Positions 9,941 through 26,420 of a DNA stretch of 64,000 bases are shown here, one piece after another. The DNA is taken from assembly GCA_964398815.1 (NCBI GenBank), contig CAYNNZ010000002.1, forward strand, positions 207 to 64,206. The letters are read 5' to 3'. Below the pieces are notes generated by a model. The model was not told where the DNA came from, ran no database searches, and worked only from the letters and a program-made list of their open reading frames with translations. The stretch is from an uncultured Candidatus Saccharibacteria bacterium. Its GTDB lineage: Bacteria; Patescibacteriota; Minisyncoccia; Phycocordibacterales; Phycocordibacteraceae. Position numbers and translations under genes: made by a program. How positions within the stretch are numbered: the first letter of the stretch is position 1; each line of letters opens with the position of its first letter.

Positions 9941-10441
9941 TTAGGCGGCCGGAGCCTCCTCTGCTTCCGGTGCAGCTTCTGCTTCTGCAATCACCTCTGC
10001 AGGTGCTTCAACAGTAACCTCTGCTTCCGGAGCAGCCTCATCTAGCGGTGCTGCTTCTGCTGCGGCTGCCTCCTCAGCGGCCTTTGCGGCTGCTGCAGCT
10101 GCCTCGGCATCTGCCTTCTCCTTTGCTGCGGCTTCCTCTGCAGCCTTCTTAGCGATGTTCTTCTCGAGGTTCACCTTCGAGACAACCTTTGCGGTCTTTG
10201 CGCCTTCAATAACACCCTCCTTCACGAGCAGGTTGTGGAGGGACGGAGATACCTGTGCGCCCTTAGAAATCCAGTCCTTGATAGCGTCTGGCTTCAGGGT
10301 GACTGCCTTGGTCTTCGGGTTATAGGTACCAACGAGGTCGACATAGCTGCCTGCCTTCGGGCCTGCAGCTTTGGGGAGTACGGCAATGCGAAAGGCCGGG
10401 TCGTTTTTGCGGCCAATGCGCTGGAATCGGATCATCAACAT
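9941..10441 (-). CDS. rpsP: 30S ribosomal protein S16 with Ala/Glu-rich C-terminal extension
   Basis: MLMIRFQRIGRKNDPAFRIAVL... (start at the internal Met of the 206-aa track ORF). Low-complexity AEEAAAA tail. Confidence 0.85.
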   Translation of the reverse strand: MLMIRFQRIGRKNDPAFRIAVLPKAAGPKAGSYVDLVGTYNPKTKAVTLKPDAIKDWISKGAQVSPSLHNLLVKEGVIEGAKTAKVVSKVNLEKNIAKKAAEEAAAKEKADAEAAAAAAKAAEEAAAAEAAPLDEAAPEAEVTVEAPAEVIAEAEAAPEAEEAPAA

Positions 10442-10688
10442 AGTGGGGCGAAGCGTAGCAAAATAGGGCGTTTTAGTCCAGTACGGGAAAAGAAGGCGGC
10501 CCGTCTTCAGGCCGCCAGTTGGGCGCTCAAGCCGGGGAGGCGTGCGAGCGCTTACCGTCAAGCATAGCAGAAGCGGCGGCCACTAAGGGACCGCCGCCGA
10601 GCTGCCGTGCAGGCGCTCTCCCAGTTCGAAACCTCCCCGTTCCGAGACTGGGTAGAACTATTGTAGTAGACGCAAGGTAAAGATACGG

Positions 10689-14426: not shown

Positions 14427-16640
14427 TTACTTCGCCACCGCAGCAGCCTCCTCAAATTTCACCGAAAGGAGCTTCGAGATGCCGTCGGAACCCATCGTGA
14501 CACCGTAAAGAATGCCGGCGCGGCTCATGGTCTCACGATTATGCGTAATGACGATGAGCTGCGAGCGCTTTGCGAGCTCTTCAATCATGTCGCCATAGCG
14601 GCGACTGTTTGCTTCATCGAGCGCCGCATCTGTCTCATCGAGGATAAGGAATGGTGGCGGGTTCACCTGACTCATAGCAAAGATGAGAGCAATAGAGGTG
14701 AGTGCGCGCTCGCCGCCCGAGAGCTGCATCAGAGACTGCACGCGTTTTTTGGGTAGATGTACGGAAATTTCAATGCCTGGTTTCCCCTGCTTTTTCTTTT
14801 TAGTCTCTGCCTCTTCGTATTCGTCCTCGTCTTCTTCCTCTTCTGTATCAAATTCCTCGAGCACGAGCTTCGCACCACCGCCACCGAACATAACGCCGAA
14901 ATATTCACCGAAGGAACGATTCACGTTCGCGAGACCTTCTGCAAAGGTTTTGGTCAGTTCCTCGTCGAGGTCTCCGATGAGTCCCCGCAGACCTTCGGCA
15001 GACTTTGCGAGATCTTCAAGTTCGCGGGTGAGGAACGCCTCGCGTTCCGTGGCGTCCGTGTATTCCTTGCGCACGTCCTCTCCGGTGCCGCCTGCTTCCT
15101 CCACGCGTATCTTCAGGCGTTCGAGGGTGCGCTTGCGCTCCTCCTGTAGACGGCGCTCTTCTGGCGCAAGCTCGCTCTCCATTTCGGAAAACGCGGCGGC
15201 GCCCGCAAGCGCAAGAACCTCCGCCCTATCGCGCTCTAGTTCGTCTGCGAGCATCTGGAGTTCGCGCATGCGCGCGTCCTCGCGCGCGAGTGCACCTTCC
15301 TCGCGCGCCTTGCTTTCAGCAAGACCCAAGATGCGGCGCTTCTCCTCCCTGCCAGTCTCTTCGTGGGCAAGCGCATCCTCGCGTGCCTTCATAAGGGCGC
15401 TTCTCGCTTTCTCTATCGCCCCTTCGAGTTCTGCGTCTTTCGCAAGAAGTGCAGTGCGCTCGTTCTCCAGTTGGTAGACCGCATTCTCCTCCTCGGCGAG
15501 GTAGTCATCATTCGGAGACGCGTAGCGGTCAAAGAATGCAGCGACTGCAGCACGGAGCGCTCCGAGCGCGGCACGTATTGCACCGGGCTCTGCGTCGTCG
15601 TGAATCTTCGCCTGCTTCTCTACCTCCTCGCGCAGCGTGGAGAGGTCTTCGCGCGTCACCTTTACATACGGTTCGCGCGCGACGCTCGCTGCCCGCTTCT
15701 TGGATTCATGGAGACCACCCTCGATGCGTCCTATCTCGCGCGATAGTTGCGCGCGCTCCTGCGAAAGACGGTCCACGTCGCGCTCTGCATGGCGAATGGA
15801 TTCTGCCCGCTTCATGCCCTCGCTGTCGGTAGTAGCGCGCTCATCGAATCGAGCGAGGTCCGCAGACACCGTCGCAAGACGTTCGGTCGCTTCGCTTCTG
15901 CGCGCGCTCGAGGCGCTGCGCTCGCCTGCTATATATGCTTCCTCGCGTGTGAAGTAAGTCCGCGCCAGGTCGGCAAGTTCGCGCATGAGCTCTTCTGCGC
16001 GCTCTACCTTCTCCACCTGCTTCTGGAGAAATCGCAGGTGCGGTGCGATTTCGCGGCGCAGTGCCTCCACCTCACGAACGTTCTCCTCCGTCTTCTCGAG
16101 CTTTCGCTCTGCTTCCTGCTTCTTGAATTCAAATATCTTGAGCCCGAGTGCGTCCTCAAGCATTGCGCGACGCTCGCGCGGGTGCGCGAGCAGGATGCGG
16201 TCTGCCTCGCCCTGGGAAATAATGTGGTGCCCCGTCTCACCCACGTTCGCGGACGCGAGCAGTTCCTGCACGTCGCGCAGGCGGACCTTCGAGCCATTGA
16301 TAAGGTATTCGGACGAGCCGTCACGAAATACCGCGCGCTCAATGGATACCTCCTCGTAGTCGAGCTTCGGGAAAATGCGTTTCTTGTTATCGAAAACGAT
16401 GGCGACTGATGCTCGATTCGAACGAGCAGACTCATTCGAGCCAGACCAGATAAGGTCCTCACTGCGCTTGCCGCGCATTGATTTCATCGACTGTTCCCCA
16501 AGCGCGAAGCGGAACGCTTCCGCAACGTTCGACTTGCCGGAACCGTTTGGCCCCACGATGGCAGTCGTCGCATTGCTGAAGTCCATCAGCGTTTTCTTTG
16601 CGAACGATTTAAAGCCGACTATCTCGAGCCGTTTCAGCAT
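14427..16640 (-). CDS. smc: SMC-like chromosome partition ATPase, short form (737 aa)
   Basis: N-terminal Walker A GPNGSGKSN. Long Glu/Arg-rich coiled coil. C-terminal signature LSGGERALT and Walker B LILDETDAALD. No obvious hinge. Confidence 0.75.
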   Translation of the reverse strand: MLKRLEIVGFKSFAKKTLMDFSNATTAIVGPNGSGKSNVAEAFRFALGEQSMKSMRGKRSEDLIWSGSNESARSNRASVAIVFDNKKRIFPKLDYEEVSIERAVFRDGSSEYLINGSKVRLRDVQELLASANVGETGHHIISQGEADRILLAHPRERRAMLEDALGLKIFEFKKQEAERKLEKTEENVREVEALRREIAPHLRFLQKQVEKVERAEELMRELADLARTYFTREEAYIAGERSASSARRSEATERLATVSADLARFDERATTDSEGMKRAESIRHAERDVDRLSQERAQLSREIGRIEGGLHESKKRAASVAREPYVKVTREDLSTLREEVEKQAKIHDDAEPGAIRAALGALRAAVAAFFDRYASPNDDYLAEEENAVYQLENERTALLAKDAELEGAIEKARSALMKAREDALAHEETGREEKRRILGLAESKAREEGALAREDARMRELQMLADELERDRAEVLALAGAAAFSEMESELAPEERRLQEERKRTLERLKIRVEEAGGTGEDVRKEYTDATEREAFLTRELEDLAKSAEGLRGLIGDLDEELTKTFAEGLANVNRSFGEYFGVMFGGGGAKLVLEEFDTEEEEDEDEYEEAETKKKKQGKPGIEISVHLPKKRVQSLMQLSGGERALTSIALIFAMSQVNPPPFLILDETDAALDEANSRRYGDMIEELAKRSQLIVITHNRETMSRAGILYGVTMGSDGISKLLSVKFEEAAAVAK

Positions 16641-16678: not shown

Positions 16679-17365
16679 TTACCAGCCGTTTGCGGCAAGC
16701 GCAGTGAGCGCAGCTGCCTGCTCTGCCTCCTGCTTTGACTTCCCTGCACCTCGGGCCATCTCCTCATCGCCGAGAAATACGCCGACCGTGAATACGCGGT
16801 CATGGTCAGGACCATCCTCCGAGAGCGTGCGATAGGTCGGCGTAACGCTGCGCTTTTCCTGCGCCGCTTCTTGGAAGCGAGACTTCGCATCCTGATAGGC
16901 GCGGTTCTCGATAATGGAATCGATTTTCGGATAGAGCGTCTTTGCGACGAATGCTTCCGCTGCGTCGTAGCCCTGGTCGAGATAAATGGCGCCGAGGACT
17001 GCTTCAAATGCGTTCGCCAGAATAATGTCGCGTGCGCGACCCGTATCCTTCGCTTCACCCTTCGAAAGAAGGAGCATGTCATTAAGTCCGAGAAGCTTTG
17101 CGCTTTCTGCGAGCGAGACGGTGTTCACCATCGCGGCACGAAATGCCGTGAGATCACCCTCCGGCTTGGTCGGGAACTTCTTAAAGAGGAAATTCGTCGA
17201 TACGAGCTCGAGCACCGCATCTCCGAGGAACTCGAGACGCTCGTTGTGGGAGCCTGCCGTCTTGTTCTCGTTCAGATAGGAACGATGCGTCAAAGCCTCG
17301 ACCAGGAGGTCGAGATTATTGAAAGTAAGGCCCAGTTGCTGCGCGTGCGCGCGTACGTCTGCCAT
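16679..17365 (-). CDS. rnc: ribonuclease III
   Basis: ERLEFLGDAVLEL RNase III signature plus a C-terminal dsRBD. Confidence 0.9.
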   Translation of the reverse strand: MADVRAHAQQLGLTFNNLDLLVEALTHRSYLNENKTAGSHNERLEFLGDAVLELVSTNFLFKKFPTKPEGDLTAFRAAMVNTVSLAESAKLLGLNDMLLLSKGEAKDTGRARDIILANAFEAVLGAIYLDQGYDAAEAFVAKTLYPKIDSIIENRAYQDAKSRFQEAAQEKRSVTPTYRTLSEDGPDHDRVFTVGVFLGDEEMARGAGKSKQEAEQAAALTALAANGW

Positions 17366-17394
17366 GCCCGTAGACTAGCGCAAAACGATAGAAA

Positions 17395-17440
17395 AACCAG
17401 TCTATATAACGACAGCCCGTACCATATTCTGGTACGGGCT
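17395..17440 (-). terminator. putative terminator downstream of hypothetical gene 17467..17889
   Basis: Hairpin agcccgtacc-atattct-ggtacgggct, followed on the minus strand by a U-rich stretch. Confidence 0.4.
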
Positions 17441-17466
17441 GATCTCCTCCTTCAAGCACTGAGTCG

Positions 17467-17889
17467 TTAAGGCGAAGTGAACGCGACATGCGAGAAGCGC
17501 GGTGCGGTGAACCGCTGATCCCAACGTGCGTCCAGATTGTTGTTACTCCAGCCCCACTTCGATTCGTACTTATTTAAGCATCGAACATGGAGCAGACCCC
17601 CCGGACCACTGTAGATGGTGCCCCAGAAGTAGACCACCCGTCCTTCCCAGGATTTAGGGATGAGGTGTGGGTTCTTCCAAAGATAGTCGAGCACATTCGC
17701 ATTGAGTGGCATCATTTCGGAAAACCGCTCTACGAGCGTATGTCCAGTTAGCGGGAGTTTTGTGCGCGGATGCGGTTTGAGGTGGATTTGCTTAGGATTC
17801 CACTCCCATGCGCCACGCGGACGGTGCTCTTTGACTGTCCACTCGGGAAAGGGGCACCATGGTGCGGCGTCAGTATCAATCAAGGTCAT
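17467..17889 (-). CDS. hypothetical Trp/aromatic-rich protein (141 aa)
   Basis: ORF probably starting at the internal Met MTLIDTDAAPW. Motifs EWNPK, RVVYFWGTIYSGPGG and HVRCL. No family assigned. Confidence 0.45.
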   Translation of the reverse strand: MTLIDTDAAPWCPFPEWTVKEHRPRGAWEWNPKQIHLKPHPRTKLPLTGHTLVERFSEMMPLNANVLDYLWKNPHLIPKSWEGRVVYFWGTIYSGPGGLLHVRCLNKYESKWGWSNNNLDARWDQRFTAPRFSHVAFTSP

Positions 17890-18015
17890 ACTCACAGTAA
17901 ACTCCTTCAAAAATCCTGAAGGAATGTGATGGCACGAAAGGTCTCTAGAGACTGCTCGCGCTATAACATTCAATCAACCGTGCTCAGTTAATCGGAAACC
18001 TTGATACGATGCAAC

Positions 18016-18918
18016 TTATTGCTTAGACGAGCGGTCGAGCAGTTTCTGGACTGCTGCAGTAACTATCGGCAGCATATCGTCGTAGAAATTGAGGTCGAGG
18101 ATGTCAGGAAGACGGAACCACTTCGCGTCATCAAGCCCCCCACTCTTCTTCAGTTCAAGCGGCTCGAACGGAGACGAGACGAGGAAGAACCACACATGCT
18201 TTCGTATCTTTCCTTTCTCAGGATGCGACGCGACATACTCGTTCTCTCCCACCTGGTCCTCAACGTGCACGTTCATAAGGCCAAGTTCCTCGCCCACGAC
18301 GCGCTTCACGCCCTCAGTCGGTGATGGGTCGTTTTCGATATGACCCTTCGAGAGCGTCCAACGTCCGAAGATGTCATGTACTAGCGCGAGGTAGTACTGT
18401 CCGTCATGCTCCGCATAGACGATGCCGCCACCCAATTTCTCGAGCGGAAGGTCCTCGTGCTTCACACGGTCCTTCTTTCCCTTCTCGTCCTTGCCTGGTT
18501 CACCAAGTTCCTTATAGACGGCACCGAGAACGCCGTTCACGAAACGGCCCGAGGAATCCCCACCGAATACTTTTGCGAGTTCGATTGCTTCATTGATGGC
18601 AACCTTTGCCGGGACCTGAGCGCGGTCAGCAAACAGGAGTTCGTAGAGACCGATGCGGAGAATGTTGCGGTCCACTGGTGCAATTTTATCGAGCGGCCAA
18701 TCAGGCGCTGCCTTCTCGATAACGAGGTCGAGGTCGGGTTTCTTTGCGAGCACACCGGCGAGGAGGGCTTCCATGAATGGCTTATCGGTTTCGTCTCCGC
18801 CGAATTCTTCGACGTTACGTTTGAGAATCTCAGTTGCTCCCGCGTCTGTTGAAGCGGTAGTGTCCCACTCGAAGAGCGTTTGGAGAACAACTGAACGTGC
18901 TAGATGCCGATTGGCCAT
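18016..18918 (-). CDS. nusB: transcription antitermination factor NusB fused to a C-terminal NUDIX hydrolase domain
   Basis: N-terminus MANRHLARSVVLQTLFEWD...LRIGLYELLF (NusB). The C-terminal part GGGIVYAEHDGQYYLALVHD...GHIENDPSPTEGVKRVVGEELGL is a Nudix box. Start taken at the ATG at 18918. Confidence 0.8.
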   Translation of the reverse strand: MANRHLARSVVLQTLFEWDTTASTDAGATEILKRNVEEFGGDETDKPFMEALLAGVLAKKPDLDLVIEKAAPDWPLDKIAPVDRNILRIGLYELLFADRAQVPAKVAINEAIELAKVFGGDSSGRFVNGVLGAVYKELGEPGKDEKGKKDRVKHEDLPLEKLGGGIVYAEHDGQYYLALVHDIFGRWTLSKGHIENDPSPTEGVKRVVGEELGLMNVHVEDQVGENEYVASHPEKGKIRKHVWFFLVSSPFEPLELKKSGGLDDAKWFRLPDILDLNFYDDMLPIVTAAVQKLLDRSSKQ

Positions 18919-19047
18919 GATGAAAGAGCTGTATACACACAATACCCTAAACAAATAAGAAGGGTTAATGAAGCAAACGCACCTTGTGTATATCTTGTGT
19001 GCAAAAAAAATAAATTCGTTCCCAGGTAAACCTTCAAAAATGATTTA

Positions 19048-19148: not shown

Positions 19149-19526
19149 TTAGCTCCCGGCTTGGCCACCCATGCCACTACGTGCCTTTGCGCGACCAGTA
19201 ATCATGCGTCCCAGCATTCCCTGCGACTTCTTGTCACGGCTCTCGGTCTTCTGGTCCTTCTTCATCGGAGTCTGATTCGTGTTCTCCGCGTGGACGTGCT
19301 CCTCAGCCTTTGCCTTCTCCTTTGCCTTGGTCTTCTTGTCCGCCTTCTTTACCTCCTTCTTAGAGACAATCTGCTTACCGCGGTACATGCCCGTGGTCTC
19401 GTCGATGGTGTGCGGAAGACGAAGCGCTCCCGATTCCTTATCGGCAACGACGTTAGTCCCCTTGAGCGCGTGGTGGCTCCGGCGGTTTTTGGTATGCGAA
19501 CTGGTGTGGCGCATTCGTACTGACAT
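19149..19526 (-). CDS. rpmF: 50S ribosomal protein L32 with long Lys/Glu-rich C-terminal extension
   Basis: MSVRMRHTSSHTKNRRSHHALK...LPHTIDETTGMYRGKQ matches the bL32 pattern. Start at the internal Met of the 141-aa track ORF. Confidence 0.75.
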   Translation of the reverse strand: MSVRMRHTSSHTKNRRSHHALKGTNVVADKESGALRLPHTIDETTGMYRGKQIVSKKEVKKADKKTKAKEKAKAEEHVHAENTNQTPMKKDQKTESRDKKSQGMLGRMITGRAKARSGMGGQAGS

Positions 19527-19599
19527 AGGCACAACCCTACCATATGGCCTTATTCCGCGCCACTTATGCCACAAAAACCCTTGCAGAAGGCCGGAAAAG

Positions 19600-19945
19600 G
19601 CGTAAGCATATATCTGGTCGTCCTTGTGCTGCTGAGCGGGACCTCAGCCGGACGGCGTAACCCGGGCATACGCCCACATTAATCGGCCTACATGTGAGGA
19701 AGCCGATGCTCATGACGAAAGACCCGCAACGCGTCAACCGTAAGTCGAAAAGGGGGAACAAGAAGAAGCACGCCGCGAGCCTGAGGGGTAAGCGAAAACG
19801 GTACAAGCCGTACATTCCGGATTCGTAGTCCCGAAAGGACTTTCAGTCCGGTGCACCTTCGGGTGCTCCGAGTCACCATGCGTTGGGTACACGCCCTTAA
19901 GACCATGGGACGGGAGGCCGCCACTGGCGGCCTCTTCCCTTTTTA
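19600..19945 (+). ncRNA. candidate structured ncRNA (~340 nt), unassigned, ending in an intrinsic terminator
   Basis: A 370-bp non-coding gap between two minus-strand genes. Plus-strand terminator GAGGCCGCCACUGGCGGCCUC + UUCCCUUUUUAU at 19903-19945. Several GNRA/CGAA-looped hairpins (GUCCCGAAAGGAC, GCACCUUCGGGUGC). No RNase P, tmRNA or SRP signature could be confirmed by eye. Confidence 0.3.
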
Positions 19946-24674: not shown

Positions 24675-26420
24675 ATGGCCTCCCTCGAGGAAAAACGGCA
24701 CACCCTCGCCCACCTGCTCGCTGCAGCGGTCGCGGAACGCTACCCCCACGCGAAAGCCACGATTGGCCCGGCAATAGATACGGGCTTTTACTACGATTTC
24801 GACTTCACCGGCGGCGACGCCCCGAAGGAAGCAGACCTCGCCGCCCTCGAGGAAGCGATGCGCGACCTTCTGCCTTCTTGGAATCAAATGTCAGGAACGG
24901 AGGTATCTGAAGCGGACGCTCGAGACCGGTTCTCCGGCAATGCCTACAAGCTCGAACTCATCGATGGAATCACGGAAAGTAAGGAGCCGATAACACTCTA
25001 CACGGCCGGCAATTTCACCGACCTCTGCCGCGGTGGCCACTGCGAGAATCCGGCACACGACATAAAGCCCGACTCATTCAAACTTGAACGCATTGCCGGT
25101 GCCTACTGGCGCGGGGACGAGACGAAGCCAATGCTCACGCGCCTCTATGGCCTTGCCTTCGAAACGAAGGATGACCTTGATGCCTACCTCGCAAACCGAG
25201 AAGAAATGGAGAAGCGCGACCATCGCCGCATTGGGAAGGACATGGGTCTATGGACTTTCTCGGACCTTGTCGGAGCAGGTCTTCCGCTCTTCACCCCGAA
25301 GGGTACCGTCATCCGCAATGCCCTTTTCAATACCCTGCTCGAAATCAGCGCCCGCTACGATATGGAGCCGGTCACCATTCCGCATATGGCAAAGCGCCGC
25401 CTGTATGAAATCTCCGGCCACGCAGATAAGTTCGGTGACGAACTCCTGACCGTCACGAGCCACTACGACCAATTCGTCTTGAAGCCGGTTAACTGCCCAC
25501 ATCACACACAGATTTACGCTGCAGAGCCGCGCAGCTACCGTGACCTCCCACTTCGCCTCATGGAGAGCACGATGCAGTACCGCGACGAGCGCCCGGGAGA
25601 AATCGGCGGTCTCACCCGCGTGCGCGCCATTACGGTCGACGATGGCCATATCTTCTGCCGTATCGACCAGGTGGAGGAAGAGGCTAAGAACATTGCTGAA
25701 ATCATTAAGGAGTTCTACTCAGGACTCGGCATGTGGGGCAATCACTGGGTATCACTTTCCGTACGCGACCCAGAGCACCTCGAAAAATACATCGGCGACG
25801 AGGAGGGATGGACGCAAGCAGAAGCGATGCTCAAGAACGTCTCGGATGCTATGAGCCTCGACGCCAAGCGCATGGAGGGTGAGGCTGCGCTCTACGGACC
25901 GAAGCTCGACTTTATGTTCACGGACGCCCTCGGCCGCGAACGCCAGCTGGCGACCATCCAGATAGACTTCGCAATGCCAAAGCGCTTTGAGCTCGAATAC
26001 ACCGACCAGGAGGGTAAGAAGTCGACCCCGGTAATGATTCATCGCGCCATCCTTGGCTCCTACGAGCGCTTCATGGCTATCCTCATCGAGCATTACGCAG
26101 GCGCCTTCCCTGCCTGGCTCGCGCCCGTACAGGTACGCGTGCTTCCGGTATCCGACAAGCATACCGACTATGCACGCGAGGTCCGTAAGCAGCTGAAGAC
26201 TGCAGGACTGCGCGCTGATATCGACGATGCAAACGAATCCTTGGGCAAGAAAATCAGGAACGCAAAGGGTGAGAAACTTCCCTACCTGCTCGTCGTCGGC
26301 GACAAGGAAATCGAGGACGGTACGGTCACCGTTGAGGTACGGACCGGAGAGAAATTGGGCGCGATGCCGACAAACGATTTCATAGAGAAGCTCAAAGAAG
26401 AAGTGCGCGACCGGAAATAG
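24675..26420 (+). CDS. thrS: threonyl-tRNA synthetase (short form lacking the N-terminal TGS domain)
   Basis: HRAILGSYERFMAILIEHYAGAFPAWLAPVQV and class II aaRS motifs. 581 aa. Confidence 0.9.
   Translation: MASLEEKRHTLAHLLAAAVAERYPHAKATIGPAIDTGFYYDFDFTGGDAPKEADLAALEEAMRDLLPSWNQMSGTEVSEADARDRFSGNAYKLELIDGITESKEPITLYTAGNFTDLCRGGHCENPAHDIKPDSFKLERIAGAYWRGDETKPMLTRLYGLAFETKDDLDAYLANREEMEKRDHRRIGKDMGLWTFSDLVGAGLPLFTPKGTVIRNALFNTLLEISARYDMEPVTIPHMAKRRLYEISGHADKFGDELLTVTSHYDQFVLKPVNCPHHTQIYAAEPRSYRDLPLRLMESTMQYRDERPGEIGGLTRVRAITVDDGHIFCRIDQVEEEAKNIAEIIKEFYSGLGMWGNHWVSLSVRDPEHLEKYIGDEEGWTQAEAMLKNVSDAMSLDAKRMEGEAALYGPKLDFMFTDALGRERQLATIQIDFAMPKRFELEYTDQEGKKSTPVMIHRAILGSYERFMAILIEHYAGAFPAWLAPVQVRVLPVSDKHTDYAREVRKQLKTAGLRADIDDANESLGKKIRNAKGEKLPYLLVVGDKEIEDGTVTVEVRTGEKLGAMPTNDFIEKLKEEVRDRK

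Follow-up and report, generated by a model that had tools for sequence, protein, structure and literature searches.

A minus-strand open reading frame in the window analysed here (the whole stretch of DNA, 64,000 nucleotides in length) raises the question of what a Nudix domain does at the C-terminus of a transcription antitermination factor. NusB, a universal and usually single-domain factor, links the transcription of rRNA with its folding and its processing by RNase III. The first-pass annotation had described this reading frame as a standard NusB fused to a Nudix hydrolase domain, had called such a fusion uncommon, and had suggested RNA decapping or the turnover of (p)ppGpp or NAD caps as its function. 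The product is best explained as the NusB of a Patescibacterium of the Paceibacteria/Kaiserbacteria type, and the question then becomes whether its Nudix half cleaves a nucleotide or binds one.

One reading frame in a conserved neighbourhood

The nusB::nudix reading frame (18016..18918, minus strand) is complete and encodes 300 amino acids, with ATG at 18918 as the start and TAA at 18016–18018 as the stop codon. We place the start at this ATG because every homologue begins there with MANRH; the upstream TTG at 18954 was rejected as the start for the same reason.

Samples in ENA, Logan and JGI yielded 11 separately assembled contigs that encode the identical 300-aa protein. In a collection of 5.8 billion proteins, the 120 best homologues are 81–99% identical, and all 120 contain both Pfam domains; their sources are numerous independent metagenome assemblies and MAGs, with contigs of up to 720 kb, and they are named "transcription antitermination factor NusB" at the source. 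A scan of GTDB with one genome per species gave matches to the Nudix-domain signature in at least 596 species genomes. The best 80 of these matches all belong to Patescibacteria (Parcubacteria/Paceibacteria/Kaiserbacteria), a few of them under generic labels, and NusB and Nudix lie in one open reading frame in 80 of the 80 loci. When the Nudix domain alone was compared with 1.84 billion cluster representatives at 50% identity, 136 clusters were obtained at E ≤ 1e-10, and at least 55 of the best 150 representatives are NusB–Nudix fusions, down to about 30% identity. Where the cluster names of the distant fused representatives give a taxon, it is Parcubacteria.

It could be supposed that a frameshift or an assembly error merged two neighbouring genes. 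We found nothing in favour of this, and since the single reading frame recurs in all 80 GTDB loci and on 11 contigs, as well as in 55 of the 150 cluster representatives, the chance of such an artefact is negligible and the fusion is genuine. As for its rarity, the fusion is indeed uncommon across bacteria as a whole, whereas within the Patescibacteria lineage it is the rule.

A survey of split versus fused arrangements found no case of a standalone Nudix relative adjoining nusB; the only informative context of a standalone relative (P0168, locus L091) is a region resembling a phage or mobile element. Other partner domains of this Nudix subfamily are sporadic (the DnaA_C HTH, a fragment of EndoV, a tandem Nudix), and no further Nudix of the same family was found within the 64-kb window. 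Neither the window nor the sequence flanking the 80 GTDB loci, for up to 6 kb on each side, contains a second NusB. A full-text literature search brought up no account of a NusB–Nudix protein, and a comprehensive review of the Nudix clan does not mention NusB. Taken singly, both domains are ordinary, and precomputed Pfam matches already imply their combination.

The gene order, dnaE (-) followed by rnhB, rpmF (L32), nusB::nudix, rnc and smc, is kept in the 80 GTDB loci. The upstream neighbour in the window is rpmF, encoding ribosomal protein L32 (19149..19574, minus strand; conserved in the GTDB loci), and the downstream operon partner is rnc, encoding RNase III (16679..17365, minus strand; identified with Pfam and likewise conserved). 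In the 80 close loci rnc lies 3' of the fusion, directly in most of them and behind an insertion in a few. Three distant fusions (L081–L083, 39–50% identity) have the same gene order as the close loci, with rnc directly adjacent to the fusion; in L083 there is even a 4-nt overlap between them. In the window, fusion and rnc are separated by a strain-variable insertion of about 0.64 kb (approximately 17385–18023) with an open reading frame of 140–168 aa, for which PHROGs and Pfam gave no family match. None of the 80 species loci has this insertion, nor do strains in which the protein is 99% identical.

The linkage of nusB and rnc fits the established biology of NusB and RNase III: mutations in rnc suppress the defects of nusB mutants, and the Nus factors, by tethering boxA to RNA polymerase, help the RNase III stem to form (PMC4807359).

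Fold and family of the two halves

The N-terminal domain (residues 1–138; 18505..18918, minus strand) was claimed to be a standard NusB, and this is borne out by Pfam, NCBIfam, AF2 and Foldseek. PF01029 matches residues 7–136 with E = 3.3e-35 and 121.8 bits (cutoff 23.1), and the nusB equivalog TIGR01951 scores 126 bits against 88.35, which places the domain in the NusB family. The AF2 model contains the seven helices of the NusB fold (residues 4–20, 25–39, 43–58, 60–70, 81–96, 104–118 and 123–138) at pLDDT above 90, and NusB of T. maritima (1tzw) superposes on this half with a TMt of 0.86 and an rmsd of 1.8 Å. Among the conserved positions examined (R4, R8, F16 and S122), F16 aligns with Y18 of E. 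coli NusB, so that the aromatic residue is kept, and S122 with D118; the Arg-rich N-terminus is retained. Judged by these features, the N-terminal half is a normal NusB and would be expected to pair with S10 (NusE) and to bind boxA of the nascent pre-rRNA leader.

The resemblance to the NusB proteins of E. coli, T. maritima (1TZW) and A. aeolicus (3R2C) lies in the seven-helix fold of the N-terminal 138 residues, with about 34% identity to NusB of T. maritima and of M. tuberculosis; the C-terminal extension of about 160 residues, comprising linker and Nudix domain, is absent from all characterised NusB proteins. Fusion of a NusB-fold domain with an enzyme domain that acts on RNA has its known precedent in RsmB/Sun, the 16S rRNA m5C967 methyltransferase. 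There, however, the partner is a methyltransferase and the protein is not the NusB of the cell. RsmB models match only residues 7–151 of the fused protein, with 63 bits against a cutoff of 319, and neither Pfam nor NCBIfam detects a methyltransferase domain in it, so that the protein is not an RsmB.

The two halves are joined by a Lys/Glu-rich linker (residues 139–158; 18445..18504, minus strand), delimited from the AF2 model and the alignment, which starts with a conserved GEPGKD motif and is variable in length and sequence. The full-length AF2 model, built from a 42-sequence alignment, has a mean pLDDT of 92 and a pTM of 0.74; its sole low-confidence stretch is the linker block 141–150 (mean pLDDT 52), and the mutual orientation of the two domains in the model is uncertain at this pTM.

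The C-terminal Nudix fold that had been proposed is also confirmed, both Pfam families named in the first-pass annotation scoring above their cutoffs. The domain covers residues 159–295 (18034..18444, minus strand). PF00293 matches residues 184–282 with E = 1.8e-8 and 34.9 bits against 21.1, which assigns the domain to the Nudix superfamily, and the full-length model shows the alpha/beta Nudix fold at residues 159–299. Modelled alone, the domain reaches a pLDDT of 95.3 and gives 485 Nudix matches in the PDB with Foldseek at E ≤ 1e-3.

Within the superfamily, the Nudix half falls in the subfamily of Ap(n)A hydrolases (aq_158/Ndx1/NUDT2-like). The profile of the family matches first the Ap4A hydrolase of Aquifex aeolicus (3i7u, E = 1.8e-19) and the Ap6A hydrolase Ndx1 of Thermus (1vc8, 4.7e-14), then Chlamydia CT771, mycobacterial MutT1/Rv2985, the human and C. 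elegans Ap4A hydrolases and, after them, Dcp2; the structures among the Ap(n)A-hydrolase matches include 3i7u, 1vc8, 4ilq, 3u53 and 1kt9. In Foldseek, the same Ap(n)A hydrolases and the Nudix of NrtR, which is non-catalytic, align with TM values of 0.78–0.82, 3i7u and 1vc8 reaching 0.82. The subfamily signature (D182, W187, T188, K191, G192, Y228, Y244, L246, W267 and Y279) is common to the fused proteins and to standalone relatives of about 140 aa. Y228 aligns in the profile with a Tyr of 3i7u and 1vc8; the ApnA hydrolases have a specificity tyrosine in the corresponding region (PMC5389931), and Y228 is probably the equivalent of human Y87.

The closest solved relatives of the Nudix half are thus A. 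aeolicus aq_158 (3I7U) and Thermus thermophilus Ndx1 (1VC8), at 26–27% identity. They share with it the motif D..G.W(T/V/S).PKG, the downstream Tyr, W267 and Y279, and differ from it in that they are standalone proteins with a canonical REx2EE, whereas the Nudix half, fused to NusB, has RVx2EE and a Pro at E7.

Three other assignments were considered. RppH and BdRppH, which act in bacteria as pyrophosphohydrolases on RNA 5' ends, have the Nudix fold in common with the domain, and BdRppH is among the structural matches; the RppH equivalog models score far below their cutoffs (NF001936, 14.3 bits against 118; NF001937, 12.8 against 139), and the protein is not placed in that family. An NrtR-type protein is not indicated either: NrtR (3GZ8) is the best Foldseek match by E-value, and the likeness is one of fold only, the Nudix domain here being C-terminal in a protein that ends at residue 300 without a wHTH. 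A full-length architecture like that of Dcp2, with a helical N-terminal domain followed by Nudix, was rejected; since the full-length alignments of about 255 columns have an rmsd of 10–15 Å and a TM of 0.31–0.43 (Foldseek), only the Nudix halves of the two proteins correspond.

The substituted Nudix box

The Nudix box GHIENDPSPTEGVKRVVGEELGL lies at residues 192–214 (18277..18345, minus strand), where the first-pass annotation had seen it, and it is non-canonical in two signature acidic positions on which that annotation had not remarked. It reads G-HIEND-P-SPTEGVK-R-V-V-G-E-E-L-G-L, with Pro198 at E7 and Val207 at E16, and keeps G1, R15 (R206), E19 (E210), E20 (E211) and G22 (G213). Against the canonical box GX5EX7REUXEEXGU, which coordinates the metal ions that position the diphosphate (PMC5389931, PMC6061791), E7 and E16 fail and the remaining specified positions agree; GX5E has become GX5P, and of the catalytic glutamates of REx2EE, now RVx2EE, E210 and E211 are present.

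Val207 (codon 18298..18300, minus strand) takes the first Glu position of REx2EE, which is E46 in Ndx1 and, the RppH motif covering residues 38–60, E53 in RppH; the E53A substitution leaves E. coli RppH inactive in vitro and without complementation in vivo (PMC6061791). In the AF2 model Val207 stands on the predicted Nudix helix (residues 200–212), with no indel. We take E58 of human NUDT2, which is Ala in PDB 4IJX, to be the same box position.

In the close relatives the substitutions are fixed. None of the 120 has a canonical box; E16 is V or I in every one of them and E7 is P or A in 117, and the signature at E7/R15/E16/E19/E20 is PRVEE, ARVEE or similar in all 120. Because E16 and E7 are thus substituted and E53A inactivates RppH, hydrolysis by the protein of the window is doubtful. 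A canonical box is present in 5 of the 80 GTDB loci, and among representatives of 50% clusters 10 of 53 fused proteins and 26 of 33 standalone relatives have it, a difference with Fisher p = 7e-8 (uncorrected for phylogeny, and with two probable fusion fragments included in the standalone set). Examples of fused orthologues with the canonical box are P0131, P0135, P0211, L068 and L073. In a rough NJ tree calculated without the box columns they are scattered among the degenerate ones, and E16 needs at least 11 changes of state. Since some fused orthologues retain a fully canonical box, the ancestral fused protein was probably an enzyme. Hydrolysis, decapping or ppGpp turnover, as had been proposed, is not supported as stated: the box is degenerate in part, yet canonical-box fused orthologues exist.

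The loss of the two acidic residues is not accompanied by decay of the domain. Mean identity in the close clade is 87% for Nudix and 85% for NusB, and the Nudix domain is under strong purifying selection. R206, E210 and E211 are invariant in the clade, E211 (E20) being nearly invariant everywhere, so that the metal/phosphate site is kept in part, and the ligand-contact residues W187, T188, K191, Y228 and Y279 are retained. Binding residues kept, metal ligands relaxed and a strong constraint on the whole make up the pattern of an enzyme domain turned binding module.

Such modules are known. A hydrophobic residue at E16 is found in the non-catalytic Nudix domains of TRPM2 (NUDT9-H), which binds ADP-ribose and is inactive owing to its box (PMC4974056), and of NUDT21/CFIm25, with the box RLx2EI (PMC5389931). 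These domains and that of NrtR have the Nudix fold with a substituted box and act as modules for binding a ligand or RNA, tied to a nucleic-acid-binding function, as the fused Nudix may do (PMC4974056, PMC5389931). They differ in belonging to other subfamilies (the ADP-ribose type) and in having other partners (a wHTH, an ion channel), and non-catalysis is proven for them, whereas for the fused Nudix we infer it.

The main alternative is that the domain is still an active enzyme, an RNA 5'-pyrophosphohydrolase, a decapping enzyme (RppH-like, acting on Np4A or NAD caps) or an Ap(n)A hydrolase, which NusB would bring to the 5' leader of pre-rRNA and in which D197, E225 or E227 would compensate for the lost Glu. 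What makes this plausible is that R15, E19 and E20 do not vary and that some orthologues have a canonical box (about one fifth of the fused cluster representatives), and residual or altered catalysis is possible on the strength of the same retained residues; membership in the Ap(n)A-hydrolase subfamily, with BdRppH and Dcp2 among the structural and profile matches, speaks for it as well. Enzymes with a substituted box are also known, the GDP-mannose glycosyl hydrolases NudD/Gmm functioning with RLx2AE (PMC5389931). Against it, the residue lost at E16 is the very one whose replacement abolishes RppH activity (PMC6061791), E7 is lost too, and the RppH models of NCBIfam give 13–14 bits where 118–139 are needed. 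Loss of E16 is moreover repeated in fused copies and rare in standalone ones, as would be expected if catalysis were no longer selected. We therefore regard an active enzyme as possible but rather unlikely.

The fusion might also have no functional meaning, a housekeeping Nudix enzyme having been attached to NusB merely for co-expression in a streamlined genome. Patescibacteria genomes are small, with many compacted operons, and the flexible linker would suit such an arrangement. The fusion persists, however, to about 30% identity with the same neighbours, and catalytic residues decay specifically in the fused copies, whereas a housekeeping enzyme would be expected to retain its box; this explanation is improbable.

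A boxA-like element at the start codon and the proposed role of the fused protein

The short 5' UTR of nusB::nudix, ACAGCTCTTTCATC followed directly by ATG, contains a conserved boxA-like element, GCTCTTTCATC (18919..18929, minus strand), which abuts the start codon. Its core GCTCTTT (18923–18929) ends 4 nt before the ATG and equals positions 1–7 of the boxA consensus GYTCTTTAANA, with the A at position 9 also fitting; this consensus is gamma-proteobacterial. It covers C4 and T6, positions at which mutation abolishes Nus binding at suhB (PMC5725501). An extended -10-like sequence, TGCTATACT, is located 12–14 nt upstream of the element, which would therefore fall within the first approximately 15 nt of the predicted mRNA.

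Among 52 non-identical upstream regions of the clade, 48 contain G[ACT]TCTTT no more than 25 nt from the start; its usual position is -9, and a conserved A-x-A-G stands before it. The motif is no general feature of gene starts: it was seen 5 times in the window against 7.5 expected, and in the flanking loci 35 of its 86 occurrences are at the nusB::nudix start site alone. From the more distant fusion loci it is absent (1 of 24). No rRNA genes, from which the boxA of the lineage might be defined, were found in any of the loci retrieved.

In gamma-proteobacteria the genes of Nus factors are autoregulated through a boxA near the start codon (PMC5725501). By its resemblance to the consensus, the GCTCTTT element is a putative site for NusB/S10. 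The RNA of the putative boxA-like region of nusB::nudix, a candidate ligand of NusB/S10, is ACAGCUCUUUCAUC.

A further alternative assigns the Nudix half a purely structural part. As a protein scaffold that binds no nucleotide, it would bridge the complex of NusB/S10 and boxA to RNA polymerase or to RNase III and stand in for SuhB, a protein of the inositol monophosphatase fold that stabilises the NusB/E–boxA loop in the rrnTAC (PMC4807359, PMC6614801; bioRxiv 10.64898/2026.03.17.712431). SuhB has a small-molecule phosphatase fold, is accessory to NusB/E–boxA and has a genetic link to rnc (PMC4807359). Its likeness to the fused Nudix is one of function and speculative; its fold is unrelated to that of Nudix and it is a separate polypeptide. 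The degraded catalytic residues and the conserved operon with rnc are consistent with a scaffold. The residues that have been kept are, however, ligand and phosphate contacts common to the standalone enzymes (W187, K191, Y228, Y279, R206 and E211), and no new conserved surface patch has emerged; a scaffold thus appears improbable.

The best reading of the data is that the Nudix half is a pseudo-enzyme, more likely to bind than to cleave a nucleotide polyphosphate or an RNA 5' end. From the sequence, we propose with middling confidence that it binds nucleoside polyphosphates with no hydrolysis or only a feeble one, and that it adds affinity or regulation to NusB where rRNA transcription is coupled to RNase III. 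On this model the NusB half would pair with S10 and bind boxA of the nascent pre-rRNA leader, while the flexible linker of about 20 residues would tether to it a Nudix domain descended from hydrolases of the Ap4A/Ap6A type. Its ligand might be the 5' end of the transcript that bears boxA, with its (p)ppN or Np4 cap, or else a free dinucleoside-polyphosphate alarmone of the ApnA type, and binding of this ligand would tune NusB during synthesis of pre-rRNA and its processing by RNase III.

A more specific and distinctly speculative version, which we consider unlikely, makes the Nudix domain a reader of RNA 5' ends. It would recognise the 5'-triphosphate or Np4 cap where boxA is no further than about 15 nt from the transcription start, clamp boxA and the 5' terminus together, and take the place of SuhB-like stabilisation in the complex that serves rRNA antitermination and processing in Patescibacteria; the fused protein would also repress its own near-leaderless mRNA through GCUCUUU.

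For annotation, the name "transcription antitermination factor NusB" conceals the Nudix half of the protein, and the label "Nudix hydrolase" would probably overstate its function. In a large, uncultivated and genome-reduced lineage (at least 596 species-level genomes), every NusB copy inspected carries an extra Nudix module. This module is strongly selected, yet catalytic residues have repeatedly been lost from it, which makes the lineage a natural experiment in the passage from an enzyme to a binding domain. The fusion hints at a lineage-specific assembly of the complex for rRNA transcription and processing, and it offers a testable idea, namely that NusB may sense RNA 5' ends or alarmones.

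Linker motif and standalone relative of the Nudix domain

Immediately after the last NusB helix of the fusion protein lies the motif GEPGKD (residues 139–144, window 18487–18504), which is kept in the close and in many of the distant fusion proteins, the remainder of the linker being variable. It may act as a hinge or mediate an interaction.

We also observed a standalone relative of the Nudix domain, the 150-aa protein P0168 (L091, 4001–4453), which has a canonical box and 34% identity. The surrounding genes match a DNA methylase clearly in Pfam; for a phage integrase and for the phage replication protein O the matches are weak or faint. These phage-type surroundings indicate that the Nudix subfamily is also carried by mobile elements or phages.

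It should be noted that at the L002 locus and several loci with CA*-type prefixes the operon is of the Patescibacteria type, and the MAG records say “Bacillota bacterium” or “uncultured Candidatus Saccharibacteria”. These labels look like mislabelled or generic taxonomy, not a wider distribution of the fusion.

Genes and intergenic regions around the fusion gene

Bacterial SMC proteins are typically about 1,200 aa long. The SMC homologue of the window (14427–16640, minus strand), at 737 aa, is far shorter, and both of its termini hold head domains, an arrangement implying that the coiled coil is greatly shortened; in relatives the protein has 737–753 aa, and 852 aa at the distant fusion locus L083. 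Two ribosomal protein ORFs on the minus strand greatly exceed their core Pfam domains in length: the L32 ORF (rpmF, 19149–19574) is 121–141 aa with a C-terminal tail rich in Lys and Glu, the core Pfam domain being about 56 aa, and the S16 ORF (9941–10561) is 206 aa, as against a core Pfam domain of about 62 aa.

Between the fusion gene and rnc lies a strain-variable insertion of ~0.64 kb (about 17385–18023), whose ORF (17467–17973, minus strand) encodes a product of 140–168 aa with no match in Pfam or PHROG. The insertion is carried by contigs L084–L087. Neither L088–L090, strains with a 99% identical protein, nor any of the 80 GTDB species loci (the best 80 of at least 596 genomes matched by the Nudix-domain signature) has it.

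Between rnhB and rpmF, which are 368 bp apart, there is a strong terminator-like hairpin (19912–19936). Its 11-bp stem, with 8 G-C pairs, runs into a T-rich tract, and the hairpin is on the plus strand, opposite to that of both genes; no RNA family was found for it in Rfam.

Start-proximal elements and the boxA-like sequence

In the 16.5–20.7 kb region of the window, no full promoter emerged from a scan with the sigma-70 consensus. Many long ORFs of the window have a -10 element of the TGnTAnnnT type (TGCTATACT, GCTAGAAT, TTATAAT) 6–12 nt before the ATG and are without a Shine-Dalgarno sequence, as at the starts at 24675 (plus strand) and 16640 (minus strand). Taken together, the short distance and the missing Shine-Dalgarno sequence suggest that the mRNAs of this organism are mostly leaderless or near-leaderless.

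For the fusion gene, a boxA-like element, GCTCTTTCATC (18919–18929, minus strand), is located immediately 5′ of the ATG, and its G[ACT]TCTTT form is kept in 48 of 52 clade relatives. The promoter-like sequence upstream of it, extending to about 18960 on the same strand, includes an extended -10-like TGCTATACT 12–14 nt upstream of the element. The boxA-like element is a candidate NusB/S10 site for autoregulation at the extreme 5′ end of the mRNA.
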